Below, piece by piece: positions 17,300 through 64,000 of a stretch of 64,000 bases of DNA. The DNA is from Psammoneis japonica (taxonomy: Eukaryota). The first letter of the stretch is position 1. Each line of letters opens with the position of its first letter. A program made the position numbers and the translations under genes. The notes beneath the pieces are model-generated. The model searched no databases. It had not been told where the DNA came from and saw only the letters and a list, made by a program, of their open reading frames with translations. Where the stretch lies: positions 716,840-780,839 of the forward strand of contig QPGO01000016.1 of assembly GCA_008632985.1 (NCBI GenBank), given 5' to 3'.

Positions 17300-18950
17300 A
17301 CAACGCACATTTCTTCCCAGCCATCTCATGTTGAGAGCTGATCTTGCGTCCAAGCAGCGCCACCTCTCTGGAGGCCCCTTCGCAGGGACCCAATTCTGAG
17401 TGTGGTGGAAACCATCCATTCACACATGTGTGCAGCATGGCATGTCACTGATGCACGCCACAGATGATCTGAATGCACAAACAGCCCTTTGTCTGGCCAC
17501 CTGAGTGTTCTTGGTTTGAATTGTTTTTGATGCGACAATTTGAAAACTGCTGGCAAGCTGCAGCAGAAGAAGAGTGTGTTGTGGCGCTGGTGCTCCCATT
17601 TAAGGAGTTGTCATTCATGGGCTGAACTGTGTGACAATTGCACATTGTGGAGAAGGCATGGCTGCAGTTGCTGACTGATGAACTTGATGATGGAGAAATT
17701 GTCATTGGGTGAGAGTCAGCCGTGCGACATTGTTTCGTTGACATCACCCATCACCAGCGACGACAACGGCGTGGGAGTTCTTTGTGAGTGCGTGTCAGTT
17801 CTTAGAGACAGTGACAGAGCTGATGTTTGTAAAATTTTCATCACTGGAACAATGGCAGGTTCAGGTTCAGAGGATGCAGGCATCTGAGCAAAGCTTGTGT
17901 TTTCTGCTTCTTGCCTCATTGGACTCGCGCCCATTGCAGCAGAAACCGGTCTTTGCTCCTTCTTCTCCCTTCGCCTTCATTTGCAAACAGCCCCATTGTT
18001 CCTCTTTTTTTTTTCTTTGCCATCTTGATGAAACCATTTCTGAGGTTGATGTCACACCTTGCCAAACACCTGCATCAGCTGAGCACTGCCTTGCTCACTC
18101 TGGTTTTCCTGGGCTGGTTTGGGCTGTGTGGGATTGATCCAATTGCTTTTGTGCAATCTTCCACATTCCTTTCCTCTCTTCCTTCAGCCTTGTTGCCAAA
18201 ACCATTTCACATTTGGCGACCTTTTGTTTGCTTTTCTGGCACTTCCGCGCTGCCAACAATTTTGGAGTCTGGCTTCTTTTCACCACACACACAGCAGCAG
18301 GCAGGAAGAATGAGGAGCACACCTTGTCCGATGGTTTTTTCACATTTGTTTTTGTTTCCATGTGCTTTTGCCAGTTGTTCGTCCTGTCCCACCAGTTTGA
18401 TGCAGGTTGTTTCACCACAAAATTGTTTGGCTTGGCAAACAACAGAGCCAAAGTGCAAAAGTCATAAAAGGCTCCTTCTTGTTGGTGAGAACTTTGGGAA
18501 TCATGACATTCTTTTTCCATTCTTGCAAAATGTCAAAGCAAAAATCAAATTTTCAACTCATTGTTGCCCCCGCATGGTTCTCTTCTCTAAATTTTCCCAG
18601 GTGCGGCCACACAAGATTGGCGACCTGCTCCCTTCGCGCAAGCAAGAGAACATGGTTTTGATGTCGTGGTGATGTGATGTTCACTTTGTGAATTTTCACA
18701 TGTTGTCATGTCAACAAATTTTGCATTTGTGCACAAATGCCAACAGCAACAGGAAAAATCCTGAACCATGTCCTGGCAACCATGGGGCGGGAGTTTTCAC
18801 TTGACAACACACACATGCTGGCGCAAGAACATGAACACATCCAACTCAATGCAAGTGATGATGTCATCACCAACATCCCACAGGACCACTTGCAAAGGTG
18901 TGAAGAGAGCCCGGGTCCTCAAAAGTTAATTGTGTTGACACGGATTTTGA
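17300..18950. mobile_element. Degenerate TpA/CpG-depleted repeat relic, family not assigned
   Basis: Near absence of TA, excess TG/CA, broken Cys/His-rich frames. Minus-strand MLHTCV resembles NVHTCVNG of the Harbinger at 49.8 kb (weak). Confidence 0.5.
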
Positions 18951-19613
18951 TTTTATGAGCCGCAAATTCAACGCAATACGACAACACGAGCATCAAGAAT
19001 GTCTGATTAGAAGTCATTAACTGCTGACGTTGGCCAGACAGTTTGGTCCTTTGTCGTCCGTCCGCACTGTACCAGGATGAGATTTCCAACGATTGCCGAC
19101 CACCCGCCTCTCTTCGAAACCCTCTGCTCCAGGTCCCTGATCCAACGAGAGCAGAGACTCACTCTACTAGCTAGACCTGCCCTTGTTGGTCAGAGGTTGT
19201 GCTTTTACAGCACCAAATAACGTGGGAAAGACTCTACATTGCGTGGGAAAAAGACCTCTTTTTACCGTAGACGCGGTCACCGAGCAAAAAGGGACTTGAG
19301 TGTGCCCGAGCTTCGCGGCTGCATAAAGCGGTGCTACATTATTTCCACAATAGCCAGATAGAGCAATGTACTCGATACAATGTCGACCACTACAACCTGG
19401 GAGATGGCTTTGGAGTAGCTTTGCTAGATTAGAGCACTACTGTAGAGATGGTTCAGCAGAGACTGGGCACAGACCGGCACCAACATTCATCACGCTTCAG
19501 AGTAGTATGGAGTCAATAGTACTGCCGGAAATGCACTCCACTATAACTATAGTGTATATATCAAAAAAAAGCCTTATAATAATAATAGCTAGCTTGTTAT
19601 ATTAGTAAGTCAT

Positions 19614-26908: not shown

Positions 26909-27206
26909 CCATTGTACCTTTAGATTAGAAAAAAGAACTTTTTGTCAATCCATCACCGGCACCATGATTTTCAACGCTAGCCAGCCAATCACATCGGTTT
27001 TTGTTGTTGAAGGAGCTCCGGGTTTACTTTTCATGTAATCTACAGCACCGCATCTTGTATCGATGTGAGTCCCATTGTACCTTTAGATTAAAAAAGAACT
27101 TTTTGTCAATCCATCACCGGCACCATGATTTTCAACGCTAGCCAGCCAATCACATCGGTTTTTGTTGATGTAATCTACAGCACCGCATCTTGTATCTATG
27201 TGAGTC
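26909..27206. repeat. Tandem duplication (26909-27071 / 27072-27206)
   Basis: Both copies run CCATTGTACCTTTAGATT...GTGAGTC; the first carries an extra ~27-bp insert. Confidence 0.9.
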
Positions 27207-30200
27207 ACTCGTCGGAAAAATTGGTGAGTAAAGTCGAGGATAAAACCTTTGGACCGTTCGCTCCATTCAGGGGGGCATGAACAACACTTCAACAATGTCC
27301 AAGGTTTGTGCAAGTTCATATGAAATGAAAGAGAGAAAATGCTTACAAGTCAAATTCGAGTGCCGCACGTAGACCTTGTCGCTTTCTAAACTGAAGCATT
27401 TAGTTTTTATACACATCTAATTAGTCTTGGGCTTTCCCTCGACCTCGTATCCTGGCAATAACGTATCGACTCAGTTCTTGAGAATCGCCAGACGCTCCCC
27501 AAGAAACAAATCCCCCCTACCTGGTAGGGCTACAGTACATACGCTGTAGTCGGATTCATCACCTGGAAGAAGTAGCTTGCGGAACCGGTCTTGGAACTGT
27601 AGATCTTGGTGCAACGTGGTTATTGATCGTCATCTTCGGAGCTTCGCCTTGCTTTCTCGGTACGTGGTAGTGTTTGACAAATTCTCGTCGTTCACGGACA
27701 AGTCCCAAAGATCCAAACATTGTGCACGTAGTGCTTTCAATAAACGCTTTGAATAATCAAGTAATGAAACAAACAGAAGTGCAGACAGCCCTTTATTTGT
27801 TCGGAAGATTAAGCAACAGAGAAATTCTCAGAAGAATCGTGTTCCTCTGCTGGCAGTTCTGTTTTTGTGAGCAGTTGCCAGATACCGGTAGATGATCAAG
27901 ATCGCGCAAACCCCGCATGACATGGGCGAGAAAAATAGCTTTGAAAATGCATCGAAAGAGAGTGGTTACAGCGAAAGCGGTACAAATTCTACGAGGGCTA
28001 GTTGAATAATTATATCTTCTATGGATTCTAATAAGATGAATTTTGACACTGCGACGCAATGAATGTGTATCAGGTGTACAGTCCGGTATGCGTCTGAGTG
28101 AAGCGCAAGTTGACGCAACTCAGGCAGCAGCAGTTTTCTGATTCCACGTCAGCAAAAACGATCACGCAACAATGCGTTGTAGTTTCCGCCGCACTGTACA
28201 CCACTTGAAGAAATGCTGCATGACGAAGCATTTTCTTGAAACTGCCACAGATTTCACCCTCTGGGCAAGTTGCTCAAAAGCTTTCCTGTGTGTGGGTGGG
28301 CAAAAGTGTGTGTGCGGCGTGTCATCGACAATGTTCAGGGTGGTGCAGCAGAGCCCAACACACGCAGAAAGAGCACGTCATGCTGATGTGAGATGTGCTG
28401 CCTTGGTGTGATTGGCAGAACCTCATCGGAACTTGGGCTCACATGAGAAGCAAAGTTGGCTGGCTTCAGGTCAAAACACAAGATCACACTGCCATGTCAT
28501 CCTTTGTGCAAATGAACGCGAGCACCTGTGGCAGCATTGCAGCATCATCTCCAAGTGACGGACGGCTCTGCCAGCTCATCCTCCACACACCATTCCATGT
28601 GTGCTCCTTCCCAGTGCATGCCGCAGCATCAGCCATGCCTTCTTTTCTGTCCAGCCATGCGCCCCCCCACCCCCTGTTTTGGTGGTTTTGTTTTGCGCAC
28701 AGAATGGCAAAAAACATGGGGAGCCATTTTTTGCCAGCTTGGCATGCAAAGCAGCACAGCAGCCACTGGTTTGGCTGCATGATCGCACTGCCAAGTGTGC
28801 AGAGCAACAAGAACCCAAAGTTTTTCTGTGTGTGTGTGCACTCAACATTTGCCACCACTTGCAAACCCTGCAGTCAATCAAATGTGCTCCATGCTGTTTG
28901 AGAACACAAGCTTTGGCAGCTGTGGTGTGGAGCCCACAACAAGACTTTGAGAAATGTCGTTTTTGTCTTGCTGGAAATTGCACATTTTCAAGCCCTTTTT
29001 GCTTAAAAACTCCCTCCACTGTGACAGTGTGCTGAAAGTTCCACAAGGCAAGAGTGTCCACTCCTGCTTTTTTTCACCCCCGCCAGCAGCCAGCTCTCAT
29101 GCGCAGAGTTGTTCTTGGCTGGGGGGTGCGCAGAAATTTTGGAGGCATCTGCTGCTGATGCACCACCTGAGCTCTCATCTACAAACAGTTGCTTTCTCTC
29201 AAATGCAAAATGGTGATTAAACTGGTGCAGGAGCTGCACCCACCTGCCTTCATTTGGTGGCGCCAAAGGCAGGGCATCCAGCCACATGCCATCTGTGCGC
29301 ATGTGGAAGAATCAGCCCACACAGATGTGTTGGCAGGTTGGTGAGTTTAATGAGCAGCAGAAAAAATGAGTGCAGTGCAACTCAAGTCACTCACTCTGGT
29401 CAGCTTGGGGGGGGGGGGGGGGGCATGCACACCAGGGAGTCATTGGACGGAACAGGCTCAGACCCAGCCAGATGTGACGAGAACAAGAAAAAGTGTGCTT
29501 GGGGCACAAGCCCAGAAACCCATCACCATCCTCAGCTGGTGCAACTCCAATGAAGAAAACACACAGTTGAGCCCCTTGAGTTTGGGTTGCAGCACACAAT
29601 GGCTGGCAGAGCTCAAGGAGCTGGGCTGGAATCCTGATGTGTCAGAAGCCTCACCTTGTTCATGTTGGCCACACTGTGGGCCTCGTTGTCTTCTCCAGTG
29701 TGGCTGTTTGGTGAGTTCATGAACCTGGATGTTAGCCACCTGTTTTGTCACATCACAGCACAAGTCAGCATTTCATGGAGCTGTCCTTGTCAAATGGGGT
29801 GGTTGTCACAACAATTGGGAGGGAACAAAGTGATGTCCCTCGCTTGCAGTTGTTTTGTGCCCAACTCATCACCAACTCCAGCACACTGTGGAGTGCTTCA
29901 AAACTTCAACTTTCCTTTTTTGACCAATGAAAGCACTGCATTTTTGAGTGCACAGGTGCATGTGTGCAGCTTGTGTGTGGTGTTGTGCATGAGATTGTGG
30001 GCCAATCACTTTGTGCACTGCTTTTTAAAAGGTCAGAGACTTGGAGGGCAAATGCACAAACATGGCGCAAGGGGGCATGGTGTGCATGTGTGAACAACCA
30101 CACCATTGCACTGGAGGCAATGGCACCCAATCTCACAACACACAAGTTTGCCACTTGCTGAACATTTCTGGCAAAGCTGGCACTGGGTGCCATGGCAGGG

Positions 30201-31726
30201 AGGGGGCATGAGAAGCATTGTTGCACCACTTGTCTGGGGGGAGAGAGGAGCAGCATGTCAGTGACAAATGCAGCAAAAAGAGAACAATGAGAAGATGCAG
30301 GAAAGAGATGTGGTGGTTGCTTTGGAGACATTCTGCAAGAGCTTGTGCATGGACTCTGCAAGTTTCCAAACAAAAACATCCCTGAGAGGAGCCACATGTG
30401 AGTGCATGAGAGAGATTGACATGATGGCAATGGGGGGCACACAAAACATTTTGCAACACAAACTGATGCCAGCAAATGCAGGGTTGGTGAAAAAGGGTGA
30501 GGTGTGCTGGCCAACCAAAAACAAAGGCACAATGATGTGTGCAATGAACTTGAGCACAAACAGCCACCACTGCACAACAAGCAACATGAAAGCCCGCAAA
30601 CAACAGCACATGACAAATTTGAGATCACATCAACAAATTTTCTGTTGCAAAATTGTGCCAGACACATGGGCAGCAGAAAGGGTTGTGATGTGCTGGAGAG
30701 CACCAACAATCACAAAAAGATGGCACTGTGGAGATCAAGTTTTGGAAGGCATGGAAAACATCATGAGCTTGCACTCTCACACTTCTTGCACCACTTTCTG
30801 CCAGTCATTGTCAGAAAAATGCTTGGAAGAACATGATTGAGGGCTGAGTGTGAAGCTGAGCAAGCTTGCAATGGGAAGCAATGCAAGGAGTTTGCTCAGC
30901 TGGCACAACTGGCAAAAACAAGTTTTTTTTGTTTGTGTGTGCAGAAAATAAAAAAAGAGCTGAGGGAGGCTCACAACACACTGGGGGTGAGCTCCAGAGA
31001 CCAAGCACAGCACACCAGAAAAGGGAAACGAGCAAGAAGAAAGCATCGGAGGGTTTGATGAAAAAAGGGCTGGCCAGGTGTGGGGAGATGGGAAAGCAGC
31101 AGGCTGTGGCCAGAAAAAGAGGTGACAACAAAATTTGGTTGTGACAGTTCTGCCAATTGTTTGCAAGCTGCAGAAAGTTTGTCACCTTCAGGAGTGTAGA
31201 ACAGCTGCCAAAAATGACAATGACAGCAACAATTGCTTTGATGCCCCAGGGGCATGTGGGGGACAGGCCGCATCACAGTGCAGGCAGGGCCACACAGCAT
31301 GACACTGCTCCTCAGCATCTCAGAAACAATGAAACAAGAACAAATTAGAGTGCAGCACACACCAATGCAAGCCAGCGCAGCATGTGTTGTGGGGCATCAA
31401 GAGACTGAGCCCACACTGCTGCAAAAATGAGTTGTGTGCAGTGGCCGTGTGAGCATTGTTTTCTGCACAAACATGAGTGTGCTCAGGCAGCCAGGCTGTG
31501 GCCCAAATGATGTGGACAACCCAGCCATTTGGAAGAGAGAAGAGAGAAGAGATTGCCACATGGGAGCCTGTGGCACAACCCGTGTTGCTGTTTGTGACAG
31601 CATGTGCAGATGTGCAGGTCTCTGAATCAGCCAAAACACACTTGCTTCACTCTGGCAGCACAGAGAACCCCTGCATTGTTTGGGGGTGTGCCGGACTCAA
31701 AAAACATTGTCCCCCTCCGAGTGTTG

Positions 31727-34700
31727 GAATGTCAAGATGAGAGACCCAGATGTCACATCATGTCACCTGGATCAATTGAATGAGAAGGAGATGTTGACTC
31801 TGATGTGGTTGGCTGATGTGATCTTTTTCAATGAGATCACAACCATCAACACATTCTTTGCATGTGTTTCATTCTCTCACTCTTTGGAGTGAATCATTTG
31901 CTTTGCACAATTGTCAGTTGGCATCAAGAGGCACTTGTTGCTTTGGCAATTGTGCAGTTTGCACTGATGCCAAGGCAAACCACAGCCATTGTAGACTGCC
32001 GGGGCAAGCGCAACAAGCAGCTCAGGAAACCTTGCAGGATTCCCTTTTGGAGACATGGATTTGGTGCCAGTTCAACATTCACTCCAAAGAGTCAGGAGCG
32101 CTGCACTTGGCACTCATTTGCTTCAAGATTGCTGCCAACAAAAAGACATCAGAACACCTGCACAATGAGTGGCAGAGGAGGTGGCAGGATGAGCTGTCAA
32201 GGCCAAGGACAATGAAAAGGTGAAGGCCAGTGCCAAGAAACACTTTCAGTCTAAGATGAAGTTCTGTCCTTCATCACTGAACAGCTTTTCCTGCAATGTG
32301 ACATTTGAGGAAACCAAAGAAAAGATCACTCACTGCATGCAGAAGGAGTGCAGCCAAGGGTTGCACCTGGTGACATCCACAGAAGAAATGAACCACAAAG
32401 ACTTCATTGGACAGAGGCCCATGTGTGAAGGATCTAAGATTGTTCTGCCAGGTGTGAGCAACCCCAATTGCCAAGAACAACTGATGAAGAAGGCCAACAA
32501 AGAAAAAAGTGTGGATGGACACCCAACACAAGACAGACTTCAATGAATGGCACAAAAAGGCCAAAAAGTTCAAAGAGAACAAGACTGCTGCATTTGCCAA
32601 GCTCCTGGATGACTGCTGTTCAAAACAGATGAAACAAAGACTGCAAGAAGACCCCAACTTCAAGAACACCATCAGAGACAATCAAGCTGCACTGCTGAAA
32701 CCAATGCAAACCCTTGCACTTGACTCTGTGAGAGGTTGACACCCACTCCATGCACTCACAAAGGCATGGTGCACAAGACTTCTTAGAGAACCTGCCAATG
32801 ACAATTGGGGCAAGCCAGTCCATTGCATCAAGTGCCTGAGCCGAACAAGAAACGAAGTTGCTGTGCTGAGTGTGAAAGACCTCTGAATCATCAAGTGATG
32901 TGTGGACACATTGTTTGCAGTGCACCCTGATTTCAAGAGCCATGCCAGAGGTGCAATGACCATGGGTGCAAACACCCAAAGCAGCACTGAAGCTGAGTCA
33001 GCTGGAGTTGACAATGCAGTGACCATGACACCATGGACCAAGTTGTTCACAGAGCACCAAGGACACCCAATTGACACTGACATCCTGCATCAGGAAAACA
33101 AGAGTGCCATCATCCACTGGAGACAAATGGGTGTTGTCAAGAGAGCAAGAAAATGGTCTGGGCTGCTCAACATTGTTTTTTTGCAATGGATCAGATTGAG
33201 AAGGTCAACCCAGGCAGGGTGCAAGTCCAATGGATGACATGTTGGAGGACTTAATTGCCAAGCCACTGCAGGACAAGAAGCTCTGCAAGTTCAAGTGAGC
33301 CATTGTGGGCTGCCAAAGAGAAGGTGAGCATGAAGGGTGCGCAAGCTGTTTGTGATGTCAGACCAGAGTTTGGACACATGTGGGTGAAAGATCCCTGCAC
33401 CCAATGGTTGTGGTGAGCCAAGTGTTCAACAAACCACAAATTTGCTTTCAGATGAACCATGATGTCCATGAGAAGAGTGCCCACCCATCCTGATGATGAC
33501 CCAGGACACGTCAGTGAGGGGACAGAGCCACGTGACACTTGCTTGCAATGGTGGCGCCAAGACATTGTTGGGACAAGTTCAAGAGGCCAATTGAAATGTT
33601 GGAGGAAAGGAGAATGGAAACTGCAAATCAAGATTGCAAGATGGTGGTGGAAAAACACTGCAGACATGATGAGAATGGATTCATGCCAAGGCCTGTGGAT
33701 CCAATTGTCTTGCATGAAATGATCAACATGAGATCATTGATGTTGGAGTTGGAGAAGGATGGAAACAACATCTGGGACCATTTCAACAGTGTGAAAGATG
33801 AGTGCATGGAAGAGCTTGAAGACAAATGGCTGGCACAAGCTGTGGGCAGAGAGGCTTGAAACAGGGCCTGTTGTGTGCAAAGTCTGGAAGAAATGGTCTG
33901 GTGCAGCTCATCAATGTGTGTCTGCTGCTGCACCAATGATTTCCATGTTTGGTGAAGGAAGCACAGTGTTGCATGAGACAATGGAACATGCAAAGGCAGC
34001 ACACAAAGCCAAGGAGGATTGGCAAATCATTGGGACACACACCACAATCCAAGGTTTCAAATGTTGCAATGAGGGTGACAAGGTGGATTGTCCTGACAAG
34101 TGTGCAGTGAGGAGATGACAGCAGGGTTCAGAGGCAATGAGTTTGGCTTGCCCTTGACAAGAAAGACATTGACCTTGCATGGAAATGGTTGCTCACAAGG
34201 GGTTCACATGACTGAGTCATCAAAATGAAATGACACAATGGTGGTTTGGCAACAGACAACTGTGGACGAGTTGTTTGTGACACTTTGAAGTTGGTGTGGT
34301 TTTTCCATCAAAAAGTTGTTAAAGTGAAGCCTGTGCTGAAATGGGCGCTTGTTATGAAATGGAGTTTTGCCATCTGCAGCCCTGGAGAACCAATGAGTGG
34401 GTGTTGGATGCAATCAACAACGTGGGTCAATGCAGTGAGGGGAAGTGCAAGAGAAGGTTTGTCACGTTTGTGTGAAGAGTTTTGTTGATCAAGTTGACAA
34501 CACTGCAAATGAGTTTCATGTGATGCTTCACCTTGAGAGTTGTGGTCCCAACTGGGAATTCATGACATTGTGTGAACTGTTGGACAGCAACAACATTGAC
34601 ACTCCCATCGAATTAGAAGTGATTGTGCCAAGGGGCAATGCTGAGCCCAGTTGTGTGATTGTGAAACCAGCAGACATCAGATCATCAACATTTGAGTGGC

Positions 34701-35056
34701 GTGAGTGAGTCAGAATGTCAAGACAAGAGACCTGGATGTCATGCTGTGTGACCCAGATCAATTGAATGAGAAGGATGTTGATCATGGAGTGGTGTCGGCT
34801 GATGTGATCTTCTTTGATGAGATCACAACCGTGAGCACATTCTTTGCATGCATTTTGTTCTTCTCGCTCTCTGGAGTGAATCATTTGGTTTGCATGACTC
34901 CTGTCAGTTGGCATCAAGAGGCACCTGTCATTTTGGCAGTCGCGCAGTTTGCGCTGATGCCAAGGAAAGCCACAGCCATTGCAGACTGCCAAGACAAGTG
35001 TGACGAGCAACTCTCAGACAGGGGGGAGACATTGCAGGATTCCCTTTTGGAGACAT
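31727..35056 (+). repeat. Dispersed direct repeat: copy A 31727-32056, copy B 34713-35056
   Basis: Alignable from GAATGTCAAGA to GGATTCCCTTTTGGAGACAT; differences are dominated by transitions. Confidence 0.9.
32200..33320 (+). pseudogene. Internally deleted Ty1/Copia (CoDi-like) relic: gag fragment joined to RT/RNase H end
   Basis: gag-like FKENKTAAFAKLLDDCCSKQMKQRLQEDPNF..IRD; RNase H IIK*CVDTLFAVHPDFKSH, SSTEAE..GVD, WTKLF, ILHQENKSAI. Confidence 0.85.
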
Positions 35057-35682
35057 TGACTTGCCGGCTCAACACTGTGGCAATGGGCAGAAGAGATGGC
35101 TGCAAAAGAAGAGAAAAATGGGAGGATGGAAAAGTTTAACAAAACCCAGCTGGTGCAAGGTTGCTGTGTTTGATGAGATTGAGAACAGAGACAAAGTGTT
35201 CCGGCAGAGCAGGGTGGAAGAGGGCAAGCTGAGAAAAAGAGCTGGCCGCCAATTTTGCTGTGCTGAAAGAACTCTGTACGGTAGAGAGAGAGCGGGGTGG
35301 AAGAGGCTGGGGGTCTGCAGCGAGCCCAGCACTGGGGAGACAGTGGTCTGGCTGCAAGTTATTGTTCATCATCATGATTGACTCAAGGATTGACACCTCA
35401 GCCCCAAAAGTTTCAGTCGTGAGGTTGGGTTGCGGGAACAAAACGAAGCATTATCGTGCGTGCGTGACCACGTCACAAGAAAACACTCGGGACCGACGCA
35501 AGAAGCCATCGTGTCTTCTCTTCAGATCGCCTCATATTGTAACATCATCTCTTGGAAAACCCTCGACGCACATCACTGTACAGATATACTCGTTACAAAT
35601 CGCACTCCCTGGTGCCAGTCTTCCTTGCATACGAAAATTACGTTGATCATAGCTGTTGCTCTCTTCAGAAAGCGAAAATACG

Positions 35683-46569: not shown

Positions 46570-47900
46570 TCATCGCAAACGCAAGCCTTCCAATGCGATG
46601 GCCATGTCATTTTCAGTCTGAAAAGGGATTGGATCAATCTCATCATCATTGGTGCCACCAAATTGCAATTCAAAATCACGAATCTGAACCTTAAAAGCAG
46701 GTACTTTGGATAAAACGCTGCGAACCTGCTTTCCTCGTTTGCGGCCTTTCACGTCTGAATGCCAGGGGAATCCCTCCTCCTCTGGGACTTTCACAAGGAT
46801 GTCTGCTTCACATTGAAAGGAGTTTGCATCATGCTCAACCTGCACAATGAGAGCCCTTCCTCCTGCCTGAGTACCATCCACCTTGACTTTGTCATTGGAC
46901 CAATTGAAGTGCATTCCACAGCTGTCAAGGTCGCACCCATCAAATGCAGTCGTTTCTTCGTCCAGGATGCACACTGATTTCATGTTATCACGCCTGAAGA
47001 GAGTGACTCGGAGGCACGGTCCATCTCTGCGACAGGATGGAGCACCATTTGCAATGCATTCTATGATGCCATCTTCAACAACCACATGCTCATCACAGAA
47101 CCAACAGTCGTCCGACAAAGGGTCATCCCCGCTAAATCCTGTTGATGATGCATGGTGCGGATTTTTTACCGTGAATTCCACCCCGGTGTCAGGCGCATGT
47201 TGCCGCTGCCCTAACAGGCCTCCAACTTGTCAATCAACCCACAAGCAATTGTGCACAGTGTTGAAACGATGTCATTTGGCCTGTTTTTGCATCTGCATTG
47301 TTGATGGAAGATCGTCTTTTTTGTTTGTGCGGGGTTTTGCGTGCTTTGGCTCGACGGCAATGGTGGAGCGGCTCTGCAAATGACAAAATCGGATTGAAGG
47401 TCCTGTGTCATGGCACTGTCGAGCTCAGGGGATGACAGAGATTCAGCACATGGTGTGTTGTCATTGAAATGAGTGGTTTTGGGCAGTTGGCGGCTGAACT
47501 CTTGCCGTCATTGTCGCGAAGCATGGCATTCCACCACAACGTGAAGATCCATGTCGAAATTGAATCAGGTTGTGAGTGCAATTGTGTTTGTGCAGAAGCA
47601 GTGCTACGTCGCATGGCCCAAAACGAATGACACAGTGTTTCCCCGTGGACATTTGTCGCTTTTGCCGGAGGAAGCATTGCTGCAGCATGCAGCACGGCAC
47701 GGCACTGTGCCAAATAAAAATGCGGTGCACGCAGGTGTGGCACAAATGCCGGCACCGTACCCACAGAGTCGATCCCACATTGAGACCCACCTGAGATCAC
47801 CAGCCATTAAAATTTCTCTGTGCACATGCAATGCAACTTTTCATGCATGGACATGAAAGATCTCATTGAACTTGTCACAAAAAAATTCTTCCCTCTTTTG
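46570..47900 (-). pseudogene. TpA-depleted broken ORF of unknown origin
   Basis: 203-aa frame (46570-47181) with protein-like composition but no Tyr; further fragments upstream. Confidence 0.4.
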
Positions 47901-48277
47901 CAAATCCGGTTGGTTCATGAGTTTCAGCACGCTGACCAAAATGTCCGACGAGCCGATGCGGACAGGCAGGTGGTGATTTAAGACCCACGTAGAAATGTGC
48001 GTGATTTCAGCAGAGTGACAGATTGCACCTGTTTGCTGTTTGCTGTTTGCTGTTCACTGTTGGCTTCGATTTTTTTAGTTGAAGCGCTGACATCACAAAA
48101 TGGAATTTTGCTTTTTACGAATTCTCAACTCGCGTCCTGTTCCTTTTGTTTGATCAAACTTCAGTCATTTTGGTCAGATGCTCATTTTTAGATTCCTTCT
48201 TCTCGACATGAATGTGGTGTGCCATTTTCATCTCGCAGCTCATTCTGTGTTTCTTGTTCCACTCTCATCGAGCTGCA

Positions 48278-49867
48278 ATGGCGATGCTTGTCAATCCCTT
48301 TACAGGCAAGAGACGTTGCAAGCCCACACGATGGACAACACAGAAAAGGAGGAAGATGTTTGCAATTAATGTCAACGATCAACTGCTTTGTCGAGAGGCA
48401 ATGTCAGTGGCCATGTGTGCTCTGGAGAACACGCAAGAGCATCTAAACTCCACGATCATGTTGGTTGCACAAAGATTGCAGCTCCTCATCCAAAACAACA
48501 TGGAAATGTCACCCCAAATTGCTCAAATGGACCTTTGTCTGCAATTGTGTGTCGGCTCATGTCAAACTTGCATGCTGCATTTCTGCAACGCGGTGCAGGT
48601 TGATGCAGAGGTCGGAGACCTGCAAGACGATGAACTCGAAACTGCTCCGTACAAGGAAATCTGTCGATTCACAAGAATTGACAGCTTCCAAGATGACAAC
48701 GAGGCAAATGATTTTACCACCTTTTCCAAGGTTGAGCTCCAAGAAATGTTGGATCCACTGGATCTTCCAGTGATTGTTCATGTGCCCCATCCTGGGAACC
48801 AAGGCTGCTTGCATTTTCATCGCGAGAGCTTGCTGATCCATTCACTTGTCAAGTGCAAACGACGGGGGACACACAAAGATTTGGCCAACAATGGTGTCTC
48901 TGGGGAAGCGACGAAATGGTCATGTGGTTTCAAGCATTTCGTGCGGCATTTTGATTCGAGATGTGGACACCTGCTTGGACCAGACGGACTCCGACTGTGG
49001 ATGCCACACTTTCCGGATTTTGCCGAGGCGATTTGTCAGGAAGTTGGAAGAGATGTCACGTTGATTGACCCCGAGACGGAAGAGGAACATTTTTGTCCTG
49101 GAGTTCACTGTGAACCCGGCTCTTTTGTGGCACGCGGCTCCACCGATTGCAAAGACCATGCAGTTGCAACACCATGAACGGGCCCTGATGGAAACTGTGA
49201 GGGAAGCATGCGTTGACCGGGACATGATGAGGCTCAACGTTGTGTGCACACTGGGAAGTCTAAAAAGCATGCTCTGAAAATGTTCAATTTGTTCCTTCCA
49301 AATGGAATTCATGCGTGTGCTTGTGGGCCCATGTCATCCAGACCGTGAGTGCATCCGAGCTCCAATGTCATTCTGCTGCGTTGCGTTGCATGTGTCTAAA
49401 ACATTCTTGCCATTCCGTGTCACTCCAGGCATGACAGCAAAGCGCTTGCAAGGAGTCAAATTGACACTTTCCTTCATGTTGTTCAAGAGGCGTGCCCGGA
49501 ACTACAAGGAAAGGTGCGTGCTTTTTACGGAGACTCAGCCTTCAAAGGTGTCTGGTGCTGCATTCGTGCCAGACACGAGCCCACGAGATTAGTTCCTGTT
49601 CTTCCTCTTTGTCAAGTTCAAGAAAATGCAGCAATGAAGTGATGCCGTCAATCTGTGGAGTGGGGGTGTGCGGGTGAGGTCAACATCTGTGCACTGATGA
49701 ATCGCAAGGAACAGTTCAAGCTCGAACAAGACCACGATTTTGTCCTTGCGCAGCTTCGTGCAGGTCTTCTTCTCCACAATGTCCACACATGCGTGAATGG
49801 ATCACAGACAGGAAATGGACTGGGCTTGCGTGCCCCAGAGCTAGAAGACCACTTGCCAGCTGGATGA
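48278..49867 (+). pseudogene. DDE_Tnp_4 / HARBI1-like transposase, inactivated
   Basis: TDCK, QRCVHTGKSKKHALK..PNG..GP, HD, YGDSAF, N..MK*CRQSVEWG, HTCVNGSQ, LEDHL; several in-frame TGA. Confidence 0.85.
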
Positions 49868-50084
49868 ATTTTATAATTTTTAGAATAAAATAGATTCCAC
49901 TTTAGTTTTGACATGACAGATCTGACATGACACATCGTGTTAATGTGTCGAGCCTAACTGCACTCTCTAGAATCGATGCCTGTGCACACATGCACTGCAG
50001 GCAGGTTCACAGATGTACATCTGCATGGTGCTTTGTAGCTGCCACTCTCTAGAGTCTAATTGCCACCCCCGAATCACACTCTGT

Positions 50085-50950
50085 CTAGTTGCCGCCCATG
50101 TCATGCCACGTGTTCTCCAGTTCCTTGATTCTCCGGTCATGTCTCTCATGGTCAACATCATCTCCACAGTCCAGAGCATCTTTGCGTGCCTTGCAAAGGG
50201 AGGAAAGCATTGCAGCATTGTGCTTGTGTTTCCTGGACTCCTCCAAGGCATTGTTCTGGGAGGCAAGGAGTTCCATGGTCCTCTCAAACAAGTTGTTGAC
50301 ACGGGCAGAGTTGTCATGCATGTGCTCACCATCAACATCCAATGGAGACGTTTCCGATCCAGGTGCAGATGCTCGGGCCTCAGAAGGCGGAGTGGGGTTG
50401 CTCTTGCGTTTCTTGTCATTGGTGGTGGCGAATGGGCTGCTCTCTGGATCTCTGACAACAGGTGACTTGGAAGTGGCTGAGCCCATGAAATTGACGTTGC
50501 GCATCACTTGGTCGCTGAACTGCAAATTAGTTGAGTTGACAGTGCCAGCAGGGTGGAGGTTCCAACGCGCCTCGCTCGCTTTGTCCGTGTGCTCTTGTTG
50601 AATTTTCCTCGCACATTCTTCATCCTTGCCTGCTTGGGACTTCTTTTCAGTGTCTTGGCATTTCTCCCAAAGCACACATCCCCTTTTTTCATTGTTTGCA
50701 TCCACGAAGTCCTTCTGAGCAAACTCGTCCTCACACTTCTTTGCAAGGTGCGGCAGAATGCCTTTCTCCATCACGAACTTGCGTTTCGTCAAAGCAGTGC
50801 GATTCGCAGTTTTTGACACCTGCAACCCATGCTTTGCTGCAATGCCATTGCTGTCTGCACACAACAGACGGCCTGCTTTGTGCCAAGGATTCTGTGGATG
50901 CTTGGCATCGGATGCAATGGCACTGCAAGCGTGCACTGTTCGACAATCAC
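50085..50950 (-). pseudogene. Harbinger accessory (ORF2) protein relic
   Basis: Convergent with the transposase inside the IRs; charged, coiled-coil C-terminus; 0 Tyr in the 388-aa frame 50085-51251. Confidence 0.55.
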
Positions 50951-51773
50951 AAGCATGTCGGAAAGCAACTGCCGACAAGTTGGGGAGAAAAAAAGATGAG
51001 ACCAAAGTGGTTGGGAGCTGAAAAAATGACACACAAAGTGGAGAAGAGCAACGCCAGAAAACTTGCCTCCTCACATCTGCCATCTGAGACAAGCTTGTCT
51101 GTGTTTGGGAATCGTTGCGCTTTGCGAGGAGCAGCAGCGGCATTCGGCCGAGCGGGGGCGGCGGGTTGATCCCCGATTGATGCCAGCACACCGCCATCGA
51201 CCATGTGACGATGTGCAGCTGGTGCACTGGCACTCGAATGCATGCTGTCACTCATGGTTAGTGTGGAAGTGCTTGATGTCCTGTGTGCTGAAGGCAGGCG
51301 AGTGTGTGGTGTGTGGTGTTTTTCAGACAAGAGACGATGGCGCACCTCGAAGGAATCTCAAAGTGCAGCGAAGCAAGTGGCGAGCTGGTGCAAAAAATGC
51401 GTTCATTTCTACGGGGAGGAGCTGTTTGCTAAGTCGGCTCAAATCGGGCACGAACACAATTGACAACCTGGATCTATGGAAGCCATTGACCATCCTGCGT
51501 CACACCATTTTCTTGGACGTCATTTGCGTGACGCGCGTGTGACGTGGCGAGTGCAATGGCAAATGGCAAACAGCACAATCTGTCACTCTAGTGCTGGAGA
51601 TCAGACGCGCCCCTCAAGGGCCAAGGATTTTTCTGGGGGGTAAAAAGGGCGGCAATCGAATGCTCTCATCGTGCTGTTTCGAACGCGATGCCTCTCGACT
51701 TTTTTCGACCAACAGAAAATTCTACGCATTTTTGTACCACGCCCCACGCGGGTCTTAATTTGTGCCGGGTCTT

Positions 51774-52281
51774 ATAAGCCATGTGCACTAGTACAAAAAT
51801 CACGTAGAAATTTTACGTAGAAAAAATTATAAAAATTAGGGTTTGGGCCGATTTTTTTCTCGTGCTTCTACCGTGCTTTCTGCTCCACCGACGCCTCAAG
51901 GAATCGTTTTCCCCTGAAACCATTGACACTTTACATGATGACTTTTACATAAGTAACACGATTCTGTGCGTGAACACTTCAAAATTCCATTTTCAGAAAT
52001 TCGATCAACACTTCACTACGGTCCTACCACGGTAAACATTTTCCAATGATGGAATTTTGCCGAACGGTGGACATCGTCGCGTTTGTCATCAAAAAGTAAG
52101 TACGCAAAGTGTCAACCGTTATGACTGAAATCGATTCCTTGAGGTCGTGGCCTATTTTTCGCAAAGCACGGGAAAAGCACGACGAACAAAATATTCTACG
52201 CGAATTTTCTACGTGAGTTTTGTACCAGAAATCGGCCCAAACCCTGTTTTTCGGGACTCATAACCCCTGCACATGGCTTAT
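51774..52281. mobile_element. ~510-bp foldback MITE
   Basis: Terminal ATAAGCCATGTGCA / TGCACATGGCTTAT plus internal IR pairs (GTACAAAAATCACGTAGAAA, AGGGTTTGGGCCGATTT, CCTCAAGGAATCG, TTGACACTTT). Confidence 0.85.
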
Positions 52282-52443
52282 TTTGGGATCGACTCTCTAC
52301 CGGTAGTAGCTAGAGGCCCGTAGGAACCCCTACCGGTAGGAGCGAGAGGAATCAGGAGCCGACGGCAGACGGACGGCTGACGGTTTTGCCGGTACGGCAC
52401 GGTCCACGCGGTCGGTTGCCATTTTTTTTTTTGCCTCGCGACC

Positions 52444-54199: not shown

Positions 54200-55330
54200 T
54201 CAAATCATGAGCCTGTTTTAAACCCCCAAGCACAAGGTGGGAAACCATTGTTGCACTGTCAAAGGCATTTGTTGATAGAGACTGGAGTGCATGAAACCAG
54301 CAGCAATGTTCAGTTGTGACGGATTGAAAAGTTCAATTTTTTAGCAGCACACACAGTGTTCCACAGTTTCATTTTCCAACAAGGCTCACTCCTCTTTCTT
54401 CTCTCATGAGTCAGATCAAGGCTGTGTGACCCATTCAATGCCAACAACACTCTGGTCCAAATCTCTGGCCATCTCTGCCAAAAGCTTGTCTTTGGTTGTG
54501 GCACTGCTTTGAGAGACCATCATCGTGAGTGTGGCTTTCATTGTTCATCATGCCACCCACTCAGTCTTGACTCACAAAAGTGACCCCCTTCCCATGGCAC
54601 CAGTTCCTCACACTTGAGCCAAGCTTTGCTGCTTTTTAACAAAACAGTGCTTGCCTGTCTTGAGTGCAGCCACTTCAAGTTGAAACTCAGAGAAGAAACT
54701 CTGTCTTCAACACCCCAATGTTGCTTTGTTGAATGTCCAGCCTGGATGATGCCTGTCATCGGAACAAGTGAACCCTGCTTTCTCAAAAAATCAAACACCT
54801 GCAAAGTGCTGCCATCTTTCTGTTTTCCCTAAGAGCAAGGAAAACAGTGCTGAGAGAAACAATGCACAGAGCAGCCGCAACTCTGTTTTCCACTCTTGAA
54901 GCATCCACCCAAATCTTGCGCACGGCGCTGGAACATTGTGATGTGAGGGGCTTGCTCTGACGCACTTTGACCACACAGCCAGCATGAGGCTGACTGGCAA
55001 CAATTTAACTTCCATTTCTTTTTGCAGCTTTTTGCCACAATTTCTTGCCTTGCACGTGCGATGTGACATTTCAACAAAGAAAAGAAGGCTGCTCAAGCCA
55101 CTTTTCTCTTCTGCCTCCTCTTGTTGTGTGCTCGCCATTTTGTTGCTTTTTGGCACAACAGCTGGACATTGGACAAAAAGTCAACTTTGAAACGGCTCTT
55201 TCCCTGGACAGAAGCAACACGGTAAGCCGTTGCGCCGATGAACCAGAAAAGCAATCGCAAAGCCGCAGTGGCTCCGACAGCGCACGCATGCATCATGGGC
55301 GTCCATCCATCAGTGCATGCACCGCAGTGC
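54200..55330. mobile_element. Degenerate TpA-depleted repeat relic, unassigned
   Basis: Composition only (TA nearly absent, TG/CA rich). Confidence 0.45.
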
Positions 55331-59890: not shown

Positions 59891-60322
59891 ATGCTGATGA
59901 GGCCAAAAGCAGACGCACACAGTGACTGTTCGAGTGACAATTCAATCACCATGTGTTCCGAAAATAGTTACGCGCATTCATCTTCTGAGTCTGTCGCAAG
60001 GGACACCGGCAAATGCAATGTTATCGGCAAGCTTGCAAAGTCTCTGCAACGTTTGCGTGGTAGCGTTGGGAACGAGGATGACAAGTTCGTGACCATCAAG
60101 AAGTCGAAGGAGCAAAAAAAGGGGAAAGGTGGTCTCTCGACACTCGAAGCTAAGGAGCTTGCAAGGCAACGACGCAGAAAGCGAGTTCTAGTAGATCCCC
60201 CCGACAGTCTCGAGCTGTATCGCGCTCCAGATGGCGGAGAGTACTACACTCCTAGAGAGGAACATCCCCTGATGAGCAAGCTTCGACACCAAGGGATGAC
60301 AGAGGTATCTGTCACATCTTGA
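59891..60322 (+). CDS. Small protein, DSLE..PR..HP family member 3
   Basis: DSLELYRAPDGGEYYTPREEHPLM. Confidence 0.65.
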   Translation: MLMRPKADAHSDCSSDNSITMCSENSYAHSSSESVARDTGKCNVIGKLAKSLQRLRGSVGNEDDKFVTIKKSKEQKKGKGGLSTLEAKELARQRRRKRVLVDPPDSLELYRAPDGGEYYTPREEHPLMSKLRHQGMTEVSVTS

Positions 60323-60719
60323 TCTGATGAAGTCGGGACCGTATGTATCAAGGTCGTCACACCGTGTGCTGCATGTTGCATATTTCAGACAACTGGAAAC
60401 GCAGACGTACCCACCAGCGAATATCGATGAATTTTCGCCAAGTGGTAATTCCTTCACAGGCGATGTTGGGTTGGAAGCAAAGATGTATAAGGACATGTTC
60501 ATACATCATGTTTCTCCTCTGAACAACACAGACATCACGCGCTGCGCTCCAGTTCCTTAATGTGGTCGTTGGTATTCTAAGAAACGCAAAACCTTTAAAA
60601 TAAATGTCATTAGAAGTCGATGTATGAACCAAATCGAATATAACCTCGTTAACGTGTGACCGTAATACCTTCTACACAGCAAGATCTCAGACGATCACAT
60701 TATCACAGCACATGGAGCT

Positions 60720-62350
60720 GAGTGCAACAAACTCAAGAGCAACAGGGACCTGAGGCAATTATAGTTCGCAATCCTCTTCAACAAGGAAGGTGTCACGCAG
60801 GGCGATCCATTGCGCATGCGTGCGGGCCAGGCCTTCTCCCACCAGTCCGCGAGATGAACAAGCATTTCCAGCAGCATTCACTCCTTGGCATGCGCCGACG
60901 ACTCTGCCACAGCGAGGAAATTTCATGTCTTACGAAACTTTTTACTGACTCTACGAGCCGAAGGACCCAAGCATGGTTGCCATCCCACTGGCAACTCCAA
61001 GAACATTCTAGCAGCCTCAGAGCACAATCTGGAGAATGCTGAGAAATGCTTTTTGAAGACCTCGGCTTCACCATCAAGACTGGCAGCCACCACCTTGTGG
61101 GTTTCACAGGAGAGCGGGAAGCCTTCGACCAATGGGCAGCAGAGAATGCCTCACTAAGACAGTGATTCAACACCAACAGGCAGCTAAAGCACAAGTGGCA
61201 GCATGTCCAATGAGTGGCAAAGGATTGAGGCAATTTGTTTGCCAGCATGGAACATGCGATCAAGCACCAATTCTTGCAGGCACTGTCAGGAGAGACTTTG
61301 GCAGATGACAACCTGAGATTGGCCCTGCCCACCCTCCTGCACAAATTTGCAGGACTTTCCACACAATGTTCAACTGAGTCTGCAAAATGCAAAACTTTGA
61401 AGTGAGTGCTCTCGCATGCTCACACTTGATTGTTGACTCACTTCGTGCCCCCCTTCCCCCTTGCAATTCACCACAGCTGTCCACAAGGACACAGCATGCA
61501 AGGTGAAGCCAGCAGCAGCTGAAAAGAAAGTCAAAAAGCATGGCAATGCACTCAAAACTGTTCCCCCCTGCACTCTGTTCAACATTTGAGCCTGCATGGC
61601 AAGGTGCAGCACCAGAGCTGGTGCTTGGCGCAATCAGCACAAAACTTTTGCATCACAAATTTTGGGACACCTGTTTCCCATGCTGTGGCAAAGATCCTCC
61701 TGGCCTGCCCAATGCTTGCAGTGGATGCAGCTGGAACTTTTTCATTCAATGTGCCCTTCAGTGCAAGACAGAGGAAAGATCAGCGAGTCGCATCTTGACA
61801 TGATGAGATCTGTGATGATCTCAGCTCCTGCATGTGCACACATTGTCACCAAGCCATCCACAGTGCACAACAAACCTCTTGTCAATCCTGCTGGTCACTT
61901 TTCCAGAAGCCCTCAACTGCCAATGATCAGCCCAAGCAGCTTGCCAAGCCCAGCCACCAATTTCAACAAGTCAGGAGATGGTGGTCATGGGGAGATCTTT
62001 CAGCCAAAAGCTTGTGGGGATGGAGATGACAGATGTGATCATGGGTGCAGAAGTGGCTGACATGCTGGCATCCAAAACCCCCAAAACAAGTCTTGCTGGA
62101 CCATGAAATGGAGAAGAAGTGCAAGTGTCTCAAGCCAGCATGTCTTGGGCAATGCCGTCATTTGTTGCCTGTTGTTGTGTGCCACACAATGGTCTGGTGA
62201 TTGGCAAGGAGGCTCAAGAAGCCATCTCACTTCAGATGGCTGGGGAAAGATTTTTGAGTGAGTGGAAGAAGCTCCGCTTGGAAGCATGAGGCTTTGTCAA
62301 CATGCAACAAGATTCAGCATTGCAATGGCGAGGGCAAATGACCCATGACT
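60720..62350 (+). mobile_element. 5'-truncated non-LTR retrotransposon relic (CRE-like RT, Zn motif, restriction-like endonuclease)
   Basis: KEGVTQGDPL (~60783), CADD (60891), GPKHGCHP, CSGC...ALQCKT, HDEI, GDLSAKSLW. Confidence 0.8.
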
Positions 62351-63630
62351 CTGCTTGGAGGGTGGTGCTGGTCCATCCCTGTGCCAATGCTGCTGGACCA
62401 AGACAGCACATCATCCAAGGGCACACACTGAGGCTCAATGCTGTTGAGTGGGCTCAAGACACTGCCCCTTGACCAGAAGATTAACTTGGTGCCAGCTGCA
62501 ACTCCAAAATTCCATGCACAAATTTTGCTCAAATGTGCATGCAAAAAACTCAGCTCTGCATTCCTGCGAATCCCCAGCCACACAAAAACCCCTTTTGCCA
62601 GTTGTTTTTGCCACAGTGTGTGCTTGTCACTTTGTCATGATGATGACTGCAGCAACAGTGGTGACAAAGGTTCAGGGCACCGCCACTTTTTTGTTGTCAT
62701 TGGTTTGCCACATCTGGCCTGTTCCAGCCCCAGGTGATGAGCAGTCCATCGCGCGAGAGGCCAATTTTCTGTGCAGTTTGGCACATTGAACTCCTTCAAA
62801 TTTGATCGTTTTGAAAATCAAAAGATGAACGCACACAAAAAAACACAAGTTTTGTGTGCACTCACCCTTCCATTTGGGAAAAAACCGATTTTGAAGGAGT
62901 TTGTTTGTTGCACTGAATGCAAAAATGATGGGAATCGAACCTGTGCGCATCACCTGGTGAGCTGGAACAGGCCATCTGACAGAAAATTGTTCAAGAGAGA
63001 GTGAAATGACAACAATGGATGCTGCGACCAAGACCACCAACCCAAAATGCACATGTTTTGATTCAACTGCAGAGTGAACCCATCCAACCAGCAGCCAAGG
63101 ACACCTGCAGCATGCCTCGCTGCTGGACAACACGGCGAGACCGTGCACAAGCCTCTTGCACGTGGCAACGTGGCATTGTCAACACGCACCTGGGAAGCAC
63201 GACCACAGGAGGGCGTGGCTCTGGGTCTCAGGCAATTCCAGAAGGATGCCAAGAGAGCATCCGTGTGAAGCACACTGGCCCGTCGTCTGGCCCACGATGG
63301 CAGCGTGATTCCACACGATGACATCACTCGTGCACAGCGCATGATGGCTTGATTCGCACGATCCACAATGCGAATGCACGATCGATTTGATGCGATCCAA
63401 ATGCAAACGAATGGGGATTTGGCAAGATTCCCCATTCGCACGATCCCATTTTCTCTGCTCTAAACCAGCTCACAATTTCCACAACGACAAAGTCGCAACA
63501 CATCTTCTTTTCAGCGCCTGGCACATGCACAGGGCACAGCAATGTCACTCCCGCATGTTGTGCGAGGTGACGAAATCTGCAGAAACGAAACTGTGAAATG
63601 TTGGCAGGACCGACAAATCTTAAAACGACC

Positions 63631-64000
63631 ATGAAGAAGTGGATTGAGCCGCCGACTCCGTTCGCACGGCGGGAGAAGAAAGAGCTGCAGCAAGGCGAGT
63701 GCCAGACGTTCAAGCTGCGCAACAACCCCACTGATCCGGATGGTCCAATGCATGAGATGGGCATTCTGCACCTTTCCACAGCTACATGCGAGACACTCCC
63801 AATCTTTCTGCGCAACGTGGATCGCGTGCACGAAGGACAAAACATCACACTGGGCCAGCGAAATTTGCCCTCATGCGTGACCTGCTGCAGGGTGATGCTC
63901 TGACATCATTTGACAATGCCACTGACAAGCAGGCATCTCAAACCAATGCCACGCACGCAGCATGCATCGCGAAGCTAAAGGAAAGCATCTTCCCACATGG
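63631..64000 (+). mobile_element. Start of a Ty3/Gypsy-like gag ORF relic (runs off window)
   Basis: PPTPFAR.EKKEL...TFKLRNNPTDPD, GQNIT, LLQGDAL..F, IFP, recognised from diatom LTR-element gag sequences. Confidence 0.65.

Follow-up and report, generated by a model that had tools for sequence, protein, structure and literature searches.

Evidence for a probable TpA-directed transition process in transposon-derived DNA of the diatom Psammoneis japonica

The relic of a retrotransposon of the kind that lacks long terminal repeats (non-LTR) lies near the end of a 64,000-nucleotide stretch of DNA from Psammoneis japonica (GenBank assembly GCA_008632985.1, contig QPGO01000016.1, positions 716,840 to 780,839 of the forward strand), which was analysed as a whole and is referred to here as the window. 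The reverse transcriptase (RT) of this relic has cysteine or histidine where tyrosines are expected, so that the catalytic YADD, for example, reads CADD. We consider it highly probable that these substitutions are the trace of a DNA-level, strand-symmetric and context-specific transition process acting at the dinucleotide TpA in transposon-derived DNA. Such a process would convert TpA to TpG or CpA, that is, it would cause a T→C transition on either strand, at approximately two orders of magnitude above background, in transposon-derived DNA and not in the host DNA that flanks it. It would largely spare TA within YTAR (Y, pyrimidine; R, purine) and hit TA that follows a purine or precedes a pyrimidine, killing elements by missense changes only and so leaving long open frames. 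Decay of CpG to TpG or CpA, which is also seen in the relics of the window, would be a separate and slower process.

The changes described below are specific to TpA, symmetric between strands, dependent on tetranucleotide context, independent of CpG decay and peculiar to individual copies. An earlier note on the window had already proposed mutation directed at TpA; the sparing of YTAR, the separability from CpG decay and the absence of stop creation are additions to that interpretation.

The relic and its lost tyrosines

As judged from profile comparisons, the relic (60762 to approximately 62715; Table 1) is a genuine non-LTR RT relic related to R2, 5′-truncated and frameshifted. Its frame reads FNKEGVTQGDPL...LACADDSA...EGPKHGCHP, with KEGVTQGDPL upstream of ACADD, and the order typical of the RT palm, a QGDPL-type block followed by YxDD, is present in dead form, the catalytic Y having become C. 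The codons TGC GCC GAC GAC at 60891 and GGA CCC AAG CAT GGT TGC at 60963 stand exactly where the earlier note had placed them. Pfam recognised no family in the 126-aa read-through of the relic, even at E≤1, nor in the three forward frames of 60700–64000. A phmmer search of 1.84e9 representatives (E≤1e-3) returned two matches. One of them, P0121 (E 2e-4), is genuinely related to the relic, with 36% identity over residues 2–94, and reads ...KEGVTQGDPLSM...QPWYADDS...HGPGYGYYPEP...; the other, P0122 (E 2.8e-4), was treated as spurious, being a repetitive Arg/Gly/Ser-rich protein matched in five stretches.

A family profile was made from P0121 and 15 longer homologues (16 sequences, searched with P0121 at E≤1e-10), and three matches to it jointly span positions 395–882 of 962. 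The two strongest, with independent E-values (i-E) of 7.6e-13 and 3.1e-11, vindicate the label of a long interspersed nuclear element (LINE) relic given in the earlier note. Full-length relatives in this LINE family have approximately 1160–1210 aa; Pfam RVT_1 is present in two of the five that were examined, and blastx of the relic against open reading frames (ORFs) of related loci reached a best E of 3e-28. Among PDB sequences, the family profile matches the R2 proteins 9nl3 (7.6e-10), 9dou (1.1e-9) and 9nl2 (2.1e-7), as well as 8c8j (7.3e-7). In the family consensus, the RT is followed by a CxxC...H...C pattern and by an acidic block that is also conserved; these may represent a zinc knuckle and a restriction-like endonuclease, although no domain search matched them, and in the relic they are degenerate.

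The two main pieces of the relic are separated by a frameshift near 61040–61060, and the second has SHHLV in place of sRYLG and TGA in place of one conserved Arg. The profile continues for 80 positions beyond the end of the match at 62182 (position 882 of 962), and the TA-free tail that follows would be part of the LINE; in contigs that carry the next repeat elsewhere, similarity ceases ahead of the junction at 62715/62716. A contig from sequencing run X1, at single-copy depth, bears the relic with eight differing letters and six gaps over 6,867 nt. This run derives from the same sample as the window and hence offers no independent biology, the stretch being present in one sample only.

Ancestral residues were read from a scan of metagenome contigs for relatives of the LINE, of which the best 80 of 481 were used, as 79 loci; 78 of these align at the tyrosine columns. 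The YADD tyrosine is Y in 72 loci, F in 4, H in 2 and C in none, and the second Tyr of GPxYGY is Y in 73 and F in 3; the relic has C at both columns, which is unique within the 78 loci. At the first Tyr of GPxYGY, where the relic has H, the loci have Y (34), F (23), R (14), C (2), I (2), E (1) and H (1). The earlier note had derived CADD from YADD and GPKHGC from GPKYGY: the first derivation and the final C of the second are borne out, while the origin of the H is ambiguous, as it could have come from Tyr or from Arg (CGY→CAY).

Across 344 confidently aligned columns, not one of eight consensus tyrosines is retained in the relic (C 4, H 2, W 2), against 127 of 336 other columns; the change to C or H at six of eight compares with a background in which these two residues account for 33 of 209 substitutions (p 3e-4). 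Two more H residues occur at columns with F in the consensus and Y in P0121. Hence both strand classes anticipated in the earlier note, Cys from A→G in the sense strand and His from T→C, are found among the lost tyrosines of this single relic. Changes of V to A (5), L to P (4) and L to S (3) are likewise outcomes expected from GTA, CTA and TTA. Consensus arginines are retained at two of 20 columns; 12 of the 18 lost have become H (2), Q (2), C (3), W (3) or TGA (2), as predicted by CGN→CAN/TGN.

TpA loss in the window, in sister copies and by context

TpA is almost absent from five blocks of the window (17.4–19.0, 28.2–35.2, 46.8–51.5, 54.2–55.2 and 61.0–64.0 kb), which together make up 17,285 of its 64,000 bp (approximately 27%) and contain 84 TA, compared with 1,837 in the other 46,715 bp. 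The observed/expected ratio (o/e) of TA is 0.07 in the blocks and 0.57 in host DNA, and that of CG is 0.36 and 1.00, while TG (1.77 against 1.18) and CA (1.75 against 1.18) are raised; AA is 1.17 in both, TT is 1.27 against 1.18 and TC 0.93 against 1.11. When blocks are pooled, the drop is limited to TA and CG and the rise to TG and CA, and the counts of TG and CA are similar in every block. Near-erasure of TpA from the relic and over a quarter of the window, with equal gains of TG and CA and no consensus tyrosine kept in the relic, upholds the proposal of TpA-directed mutation. Mutagenesis of WA motifs, of the kind attributed to Pol eta, was considered and rejected, AA and TT being unchanged.

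The TA-free state of the relic is derived, because TA o/e is 0.20–0.92 across the 79 related loci, compared with 0.05 and 0.01 in the relic over 61001–63000. Nor does it simply accompany the loss of CpG. Most blocks are strongly depleted of CpG (CG o/e 0.04–0.5), but TA has been lost with much CpG retained both at 63001–64000 (Table 1) and at 47–51 kb (TA 0.10–0.23, CG 0.54–0.74). The reverse case, loss of CG with TA kept, occurs in no block, and nowhere is the loss of CG more complete than that of TA.

We infer that the changes more likely occurred in place at this locus. Per 200 bp, 3 TA and 13 CG are retained in the first ~250 bp of the relic, adjoining host DNA, against 0–3 TA and 0–4 CG in its interior; the host DNA directly upstream is normal, with 8–12 TA per 200 bp; and a dead, truncated LINE with CADD is unfit as a source of new copies.

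Copy-specific change was observed directly in two sister copies of the LINE from metagenomes, L030 and L026, which are 94.5% identical over 1761 nt and for which L022 (76%) serves as outgroup. Approximately 44% of their 95 mismatches are at TA: there are 11 swaps of CA for TG, 20 sites with TA in one copy and TG or CA in the other (13 derived in L030, 7 in L026) and 8 sites of CG type, the remaining differences being 23 other transitions and 22 transversions. At the swaps, the outgroup dinucleotide is TA in five cases and CG in none. The two copies have 25 and 29 TA against 56 in the outgroup, and TA-type sites outnumber CG-type sites by 31 to 8, though CG is four times commoner (~110 against 27). 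The outcomes are perfectly balanced, with 21 CA and 21 TG. Among 37 close pairs of the 79 loci, which served as a control, more than three swaps were seen only between L026 and L030 (12 in the BLAST alignment), and pairs of like divergence showed one swap and 4–5 TA-type sites in 69–98 mismatches. The ratio of swaps to one-sided changes suggests that about 70% of susceptible TA sites changed in each copy; with a background near 1.3% per site per copy, the excess at TA would be roughly 90-fold. Differences outside TA (29 nonsynonymous, 16 synonymous and one gap column) fit neutral drift and do not separate a burst from a gradual model.

L030 is a 'fresh' TA-mutated copy in another organism. Positions 176–3709 form an uninterrupted frame of 1178 aa of the same LINE family, with HADD where YADD is expected and H, C, Y, H, H and H at six tyrosine columns. 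Tyrosine makes up 0.7% of this protein, compared with ~2–2.6% in relatives, while C and H reach 3.2% and 3.1%; TA o/e is 0.18–0.38 inside the element and 0.69 and 0.92 in the flanks, with normal CpG. Two further loci, L051 (Tyr 1.0%, Cys 4.1%, His 4.0%) and L053 (TA o/e 0.05–0.38), may be additional cases. Within the window, the two arms of a long terminal repeat (LTR)-like pair in the largest block (Table 1) differ by 12 adjacent swaps of CA and TG, by 10 sites of CG against TG or CA and by one of TA against TG or CA; about 14 of the 17 remaining transversions fall in a misaligned stretch. Each swap is most simply explained by a TA or CG ancestor that was resolved in opposite ways in the two copies.

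Susceptibility depends on the four-base context. In L030 and L026, TA within the YTAR class (CTAA/TTAG, CTAG and TTAA) was mutated at two sites and survived at 12, whereas in other contexts 29 were mutated and three survived (Fisher p 9e-7). The same class provides 51 of the 84 TA surviving in the blocks of the window (CTAA 29, TTAA 18, CTAG 4), against 299 of 1,837 in host DNA (p 7e-19); ATAT has no survivors in the blocks against 122 occurrences in host DNA, and ATAC/GTAT has one against 261. Recognition of the TA site is apparently at the level of the duplex, and the outcomes in L030 and L026 by flank were 14 TG and 8 CA for YTAY, and 4 CA and 2 TG for RTAR.

This context has consequences under the genetic code. 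Tyrosine codons (TAY) can never lie in YTAR and therefore all belong to the susceptible class, while TAA and TAG can be YTAR. Conversion of TA to TG or CA yields TGA or CAA from TAA, and TGG or CAG from TAG, and never makes a new stop. Hence long open frames occur in all six frames of the blocks, L030 retains its open frame, and the translations are rich in Cys, His, Gln and Trp.

Competing explanations and the contents of the window

The same process might have operated elsewhere, the relic having been copied from a lineage that was already poor in TA through long-term hypermutability or selection against TA and had settled at a near-TA-free equilibrium. The repeat that abuts or cuts the relic (62716–64000) speaks for this account, as its majority sequence is TA-free but CpG-rich and three of its four remaining TA lie in the spared YTAR contexts. 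We nonetheless think it improbable: a LINE with CADD, no tyrosine at conserved columns, a TGA stop and frameshifts is no autonomous source, the TA and CpG kept at the edge of the relic would be unexpected from a uniformly purged master, and the TA changes in L030 and L026 are specific to each copy. The earlier note had argued that neither RNA editing nor RT infidelity could account for the pattern, and in their sense-strand versions both are excluded by the symmetry of A→G and T→C. ADAR-like A-to-I editing, or RT error before integration, would suit a retroelement in which A→G changes follow T, since a 5′ U is the neighbour that ADAR prefers. However, editing would be confined to A→G on the transcribed strand, and here T→C in the sense strand is as common (C 4 and H 2 at tyrosine columns, H 2 at F/Y columns), with Tyr→His beside Tyr→Cys; TG and CA are about equal in all blocks and stand at 21 each in L030 and L026; the LTR-like arms differ by 12 swaps; and TAG within YTAR is spared, although a 3′ G is the ADAR optimum. 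Such an origin is very unlikely.

Ordinary decay, through deamination of methylated CpG and neutral drift from an ancestor that was low in TpA by descent or by chance, would suit the CpG depletion of most blocks (CG o/e 0.04–0.5) and the replacement of Arg by C, W, H, Q or TGA. It merits scant belief as an explanation of the tyrosines, because a change of TAY to TGY or CAY is beyond the reach of CpG decay, the relatives have TA o/e of 0.20–0.92, some blocks combine TA of ~0.1 with CG of 0.5–0.8, and L030 and L026 differ at 31 TA-type against 8 CG-type sites with CG four times the commoner. Equally hard to credit is an artefact, whereby modified bases at TpA in repeats were misread by the sequencing chemistry or in polishing and the true DNA is TA. 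Modifications do concentrate in repeats, and 5-formyluracil (5fU) reads as C in libraries, according to the accessible part of one report (PMC11071213). But TG and CA are interleaved within a few codons, where misreading by strand of origin should give molecules that are all CA or all TG; X1 contigs, albeit from the same sample, agree across the relic at single-copy depth; and two separate metagenome assemblies show this signature with the same context rule.

Several observations weigh against a TpA process acting in place on transposon-derived DNA, or limit how far it may be extended. The evidence base is one 64-kb window and two metagenome copies, and targeting to repeats rests on these. Because the nearest relative of the relic is only 36% identical to it, near-invariant columns alone give a safe ancestral state. 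In the LTR-like pair, swaps from TA ancestors are indistinguishable from swaps that began as CG. A rule confined to one strand, with A→G solely in T-A-Y, was rejected in its strict form, being weakly favoured and not exclusive (18 of 28 outcomes in the predicted direction, p 0.09). The majority sequence of the repeat at 62716–64000 is already free of TA, which means that TA-free sequence can be inherited and amplified; either this repeat was amplified after its loss of TA or its lineage stands at a TA-free equilibrium. The abundant miniature inverted-repeat transposable element (MITE)-like repeat of Table 1 is TA-normal (8 per 200 bp at 51601–51800; o/e 0.61 at 52001–53000), and an AT-rich patch (49842–50090) inside a purged block keeps 18 TA, including AATAAA and other contexts outside YTAR, being either protected or a later arrival. 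It would therefore be wrong to say that all repeats are purged. The wider claim of the earlier note, that non-LTR, LTR and DNA transposons alike are affected, is not supported as written with respect to DNA transposons: no TA-poor block could be typed as one from 150 ORFs searched with Pfam, and the MITE-like repeat, the sole DNA-transposon-like repeat recognised, is TA-normal.

The repeats themselves differ greatly in copy number. Summed X1 contig depth is 26,000–31,000 over 62677–64000 and ~2,400–2,600 over 51338–52671, the latter being about 40-fold the single-copy depth of ~63 and including the MITE-like repeat. No Pfam or protein match was found for the repeat at 62716–64000, Rfam had none over 60000–64000, and a 110-aa ORF at 63571–63900 found no homologue among 20 candidates; a gag-like open frame without database match begins at ~63630. 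Among the listed differences that set the window copy of this repeat apart from nearly all other depth (63341–63921), eight are well supported, of which six are CpG→TpG/CpA in the window copy and none is at TA, as read from their contexts; exceptions may lie among 827 further rows of the comparison. A TA-poor insertion of ~3.6 kb (48008–51590) is absent from paralogous contigs (joints 47996→51594 and 48008→51590), and lies within an older repeat with ~86% identical paralogues. Pfam found no real match in the 150 ORFs (≥70 aa) from all TA-poor blocks, a RAWUL match (E 0.0043) being dismissed as far below its cut-off; an atlas protein search with the 388-aa ORF 50088–51251(−) gave no usable match, and ARAGORN predicted no tRNAs. 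An 81-nt direct repeat occurs twice within 26929–27170, 161 nt apart and 99% identical, in TA-normal DNA.

The window is diatom nuclear DNA. Among its host genes are ORFs for ABC-2 transporters, a P-type ATPase, a P450 and a histone deacetylase; the named relatives of the deacetylase are from diatoms, namely a Bacillariaceae metagenome-assembled genome (74%), Phaeodactylum (69%) and Cyclotella (64%). The histone deacetylase ORF, 13119–14552(−), lies directly downstream of an ankyrin-repeat ORF, 14568–16316(−), and the two ORFs probably belong, as exons, to a single gene, because many homologues are single proteins of ~700–830 aa with ankyrin repeats and a histone deacetylase domain. Contigs of a second run, X2, skip 52891–53011 and 57218–57338 yet stay contiguous in the record, in the manner of spliced transcripts, and their depth is very high at 59999–60594; the run behaves like an RNA data set despite its label of 'DNA?'. 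X2 contigs do not cover the TA-poor blocks, which is no evidence of silence.

Table 1. Features of the window, with positions counted from its first nucleotide (TA, CG, TG and CA are counts unless marked o/e).
Feature	Coordinates	Strand	Details
TA-poor block	17400..19000		TA 8, CG 34, TG 176, CA 169
Largest TA- and CG-erased block	28200..35200		TA 18, CG 58, TG 826, CA 812; contains the LTR-like repeat pair
LTR-like direct repeat pair	31727-32063 and 34713-35063		starts TG, ends CA; 344 aligned positions, 70 mismatches
TA-poor, CpG-keeping block	46800..51500		TA 45, CG 188, TG 501, CA 444
MITE-like repeat, ~440 bp, inverted ends and inner inverted arms	51788..52228		arms 51788-51822 and 52194-52228, 35 nt, 86% complementary
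TA-poor block, single-copy depth 62.6-67	54200..55200		TA 6, CG 12, TG 99, CA 109
RT relic, piece 1: QGDPL block, CADD, GPKHGC	60762..61061	+	frame of 60702; profile positions 395-494 of 962, i-E 7.6e-13
In-frame TGA stop within the RT relic	60855..60857	+	
TGC GCC GAC GAC, CADD where catalytic YADD is expected	60891..60902	+	
GGA CCC AAG CAT GGT TGC, GPKHGC where GPxYGY is expected	60963..60980	+	
Rest of RT and C-terminal region	61037..62182	+	frame of 60701; profile positions 486-882, i-E 3.1e-11
CxxC...C block, in the third frame only	61483..61770	+	profile positions 651-748, i-E 8.2e-5; conserved lRYg reads CC
TA-free relic tail, ending at the junction with the next repeat	62183..62715	+	TA 0-1 per 200 bp
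Very high-copy repeat abutting or cutting the relic	62716..64000		TA-free, CpG-rich; TA o/e 0.08, CG o/e 0.82 at 63001-64000

Known mutational systems and significance

The likeness to repeat-induced point mutation (RIP) in fungi lies in dense, strand-symmetric transitions confined to transposon-derived DNA, in permanent inactivation, and in relics that are invisible to similarity searches. RIP acts mainly at CpA. Its changes are C→T and create TpA and stop codons, whereas here the changes are T→C and A→G, TpA is destroyed (o/e 0.07), no stops arise and the host is a diatom. Consequently the dinucleotide signature is opposite: where RIP raises TpA and lowers CpA and TpG, the blocks have TA of 0.07, CA of 1.75 and TG of 1.77. 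Evidence for a trigger by duplication, as in RIP, is mixed, since the purged block at 54.2–55.2 kb is at single-copy depth and the ~40-fold MITE-like repeat is unpurged. Methyl-CpG decay is similar in that a self-complementary pyrimidine–purine dinucleotide becomes TpG or CpA on both strands in silent repeats. It differs in that the target here is TpA, the chemistry is not cytosine deamination and TA is lost faster or earlier than CpG; the loss is not confined to CpG, TpA is the more completely lost of the two, and tyrosine codons are converted. Among retrotransposons, the relic resembles R2 in an RT core that matches solved R2 proteins and in the CxxC...H...C that follows the RT in the family consensus, the window copy being 5′-truncated; it departs from R2 in that the nearest protein found is only 36% identical and the window copy is dead.

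The cause would be an enzyme-made modification or deamination of a base at TpA in silenced DNA, for which there are two candidates. Adenine might be deaminated in DNA, in the T-A-Y context, by an enzyme like TadA/ADAT, whose natural substrate context, U-A-C, resembles T-A-Y. Alternatively, thymine might be oxidised to 5-hydroxymethyluracil (5hmU) or 5fU, which would mispair with G. The 5hmU of dinoflagellates is the product of a TET/JBP enzyme and is found mostly on transposable elements, and an older report of a preference for TA and TC is mentioned in the accessible part of PMC11572971; 5fU in its ionised form mispairs with G, leading to T-to-C changes, and mapping of 5hmU in B. minutum showed no sequence motif, according to the accessible part of PMC11071213. 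The direction T→C and the TA preference therefore fit what those portions of both papers describe (PMC11572971, PMC11071213). They report no such mutation pattern, however, and in the window TpC is not depleted beyond the effect of CpG loss (0.93 against 1.11). Literature located on diatoms and 5hmU was, in its accessible parts, centred on dinoflagellates. The RIP enzyme RID also has a relative in diatoms, DNMT4, with function unknown in the accessible text of PMC9998398; a C5-methyltransferase alone cannot explain changes of T:A at TpA. No description of TpA-directed mutation of repeats was found in the accessible literature, which yielded only fungal RIP, ADAR/APOBEC and dinoflagellate 5hmU, although subscription journals or supplements may hold one.

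The broader proposition, on which our judgement is evenly balanced, is that diatoms, together with one or more further marine microbial eukaryotes seen only in metagenomes, have an undescribed enzymatic mutator or genome defence that changes T:A to C:G at TpA in silenced transposons, sparing YTAR, roughly 100-fold above background, independent of cytosine methylation and by missense only. To our knowledge, every well-characterised case of transposon-directed DNA hypermutation (RIP, APOBEC-type editing and methyl-CpG decay) proceeds by cytosine deamination. If the proposition is true, genome defence would gain a chemistry not seen in it before, in which thymine is oxidised or adenine in DNA is deaminated instead of cytosine; removal of TpA through A:T→G:C with a four-base context would imply a different class of enzyme acting on nuclear DNA, in a major group of marine primary producers. 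Sequences free of TA would no longer be open to attack and may re-amplify, as the repeat at 62716–64000 suggests.

There would be practical consequences for diatom genomics as well. Such relics escape domain searches, Pfam having seen none of the ~17 kb here, and they keep long false open frames in which TGA is the only stop left and the content of Cys and His is inflated. Hence the annotation of repeats and the prediction of genes in diatoms would be systematically misled. A scan of TA o/e combined with a test for YTAR survivors would give both a genome-wide detector of such relics and a molecular clock for insertions, and a TpA process would give the question of diatom DNMT4 a concrete phenotype.

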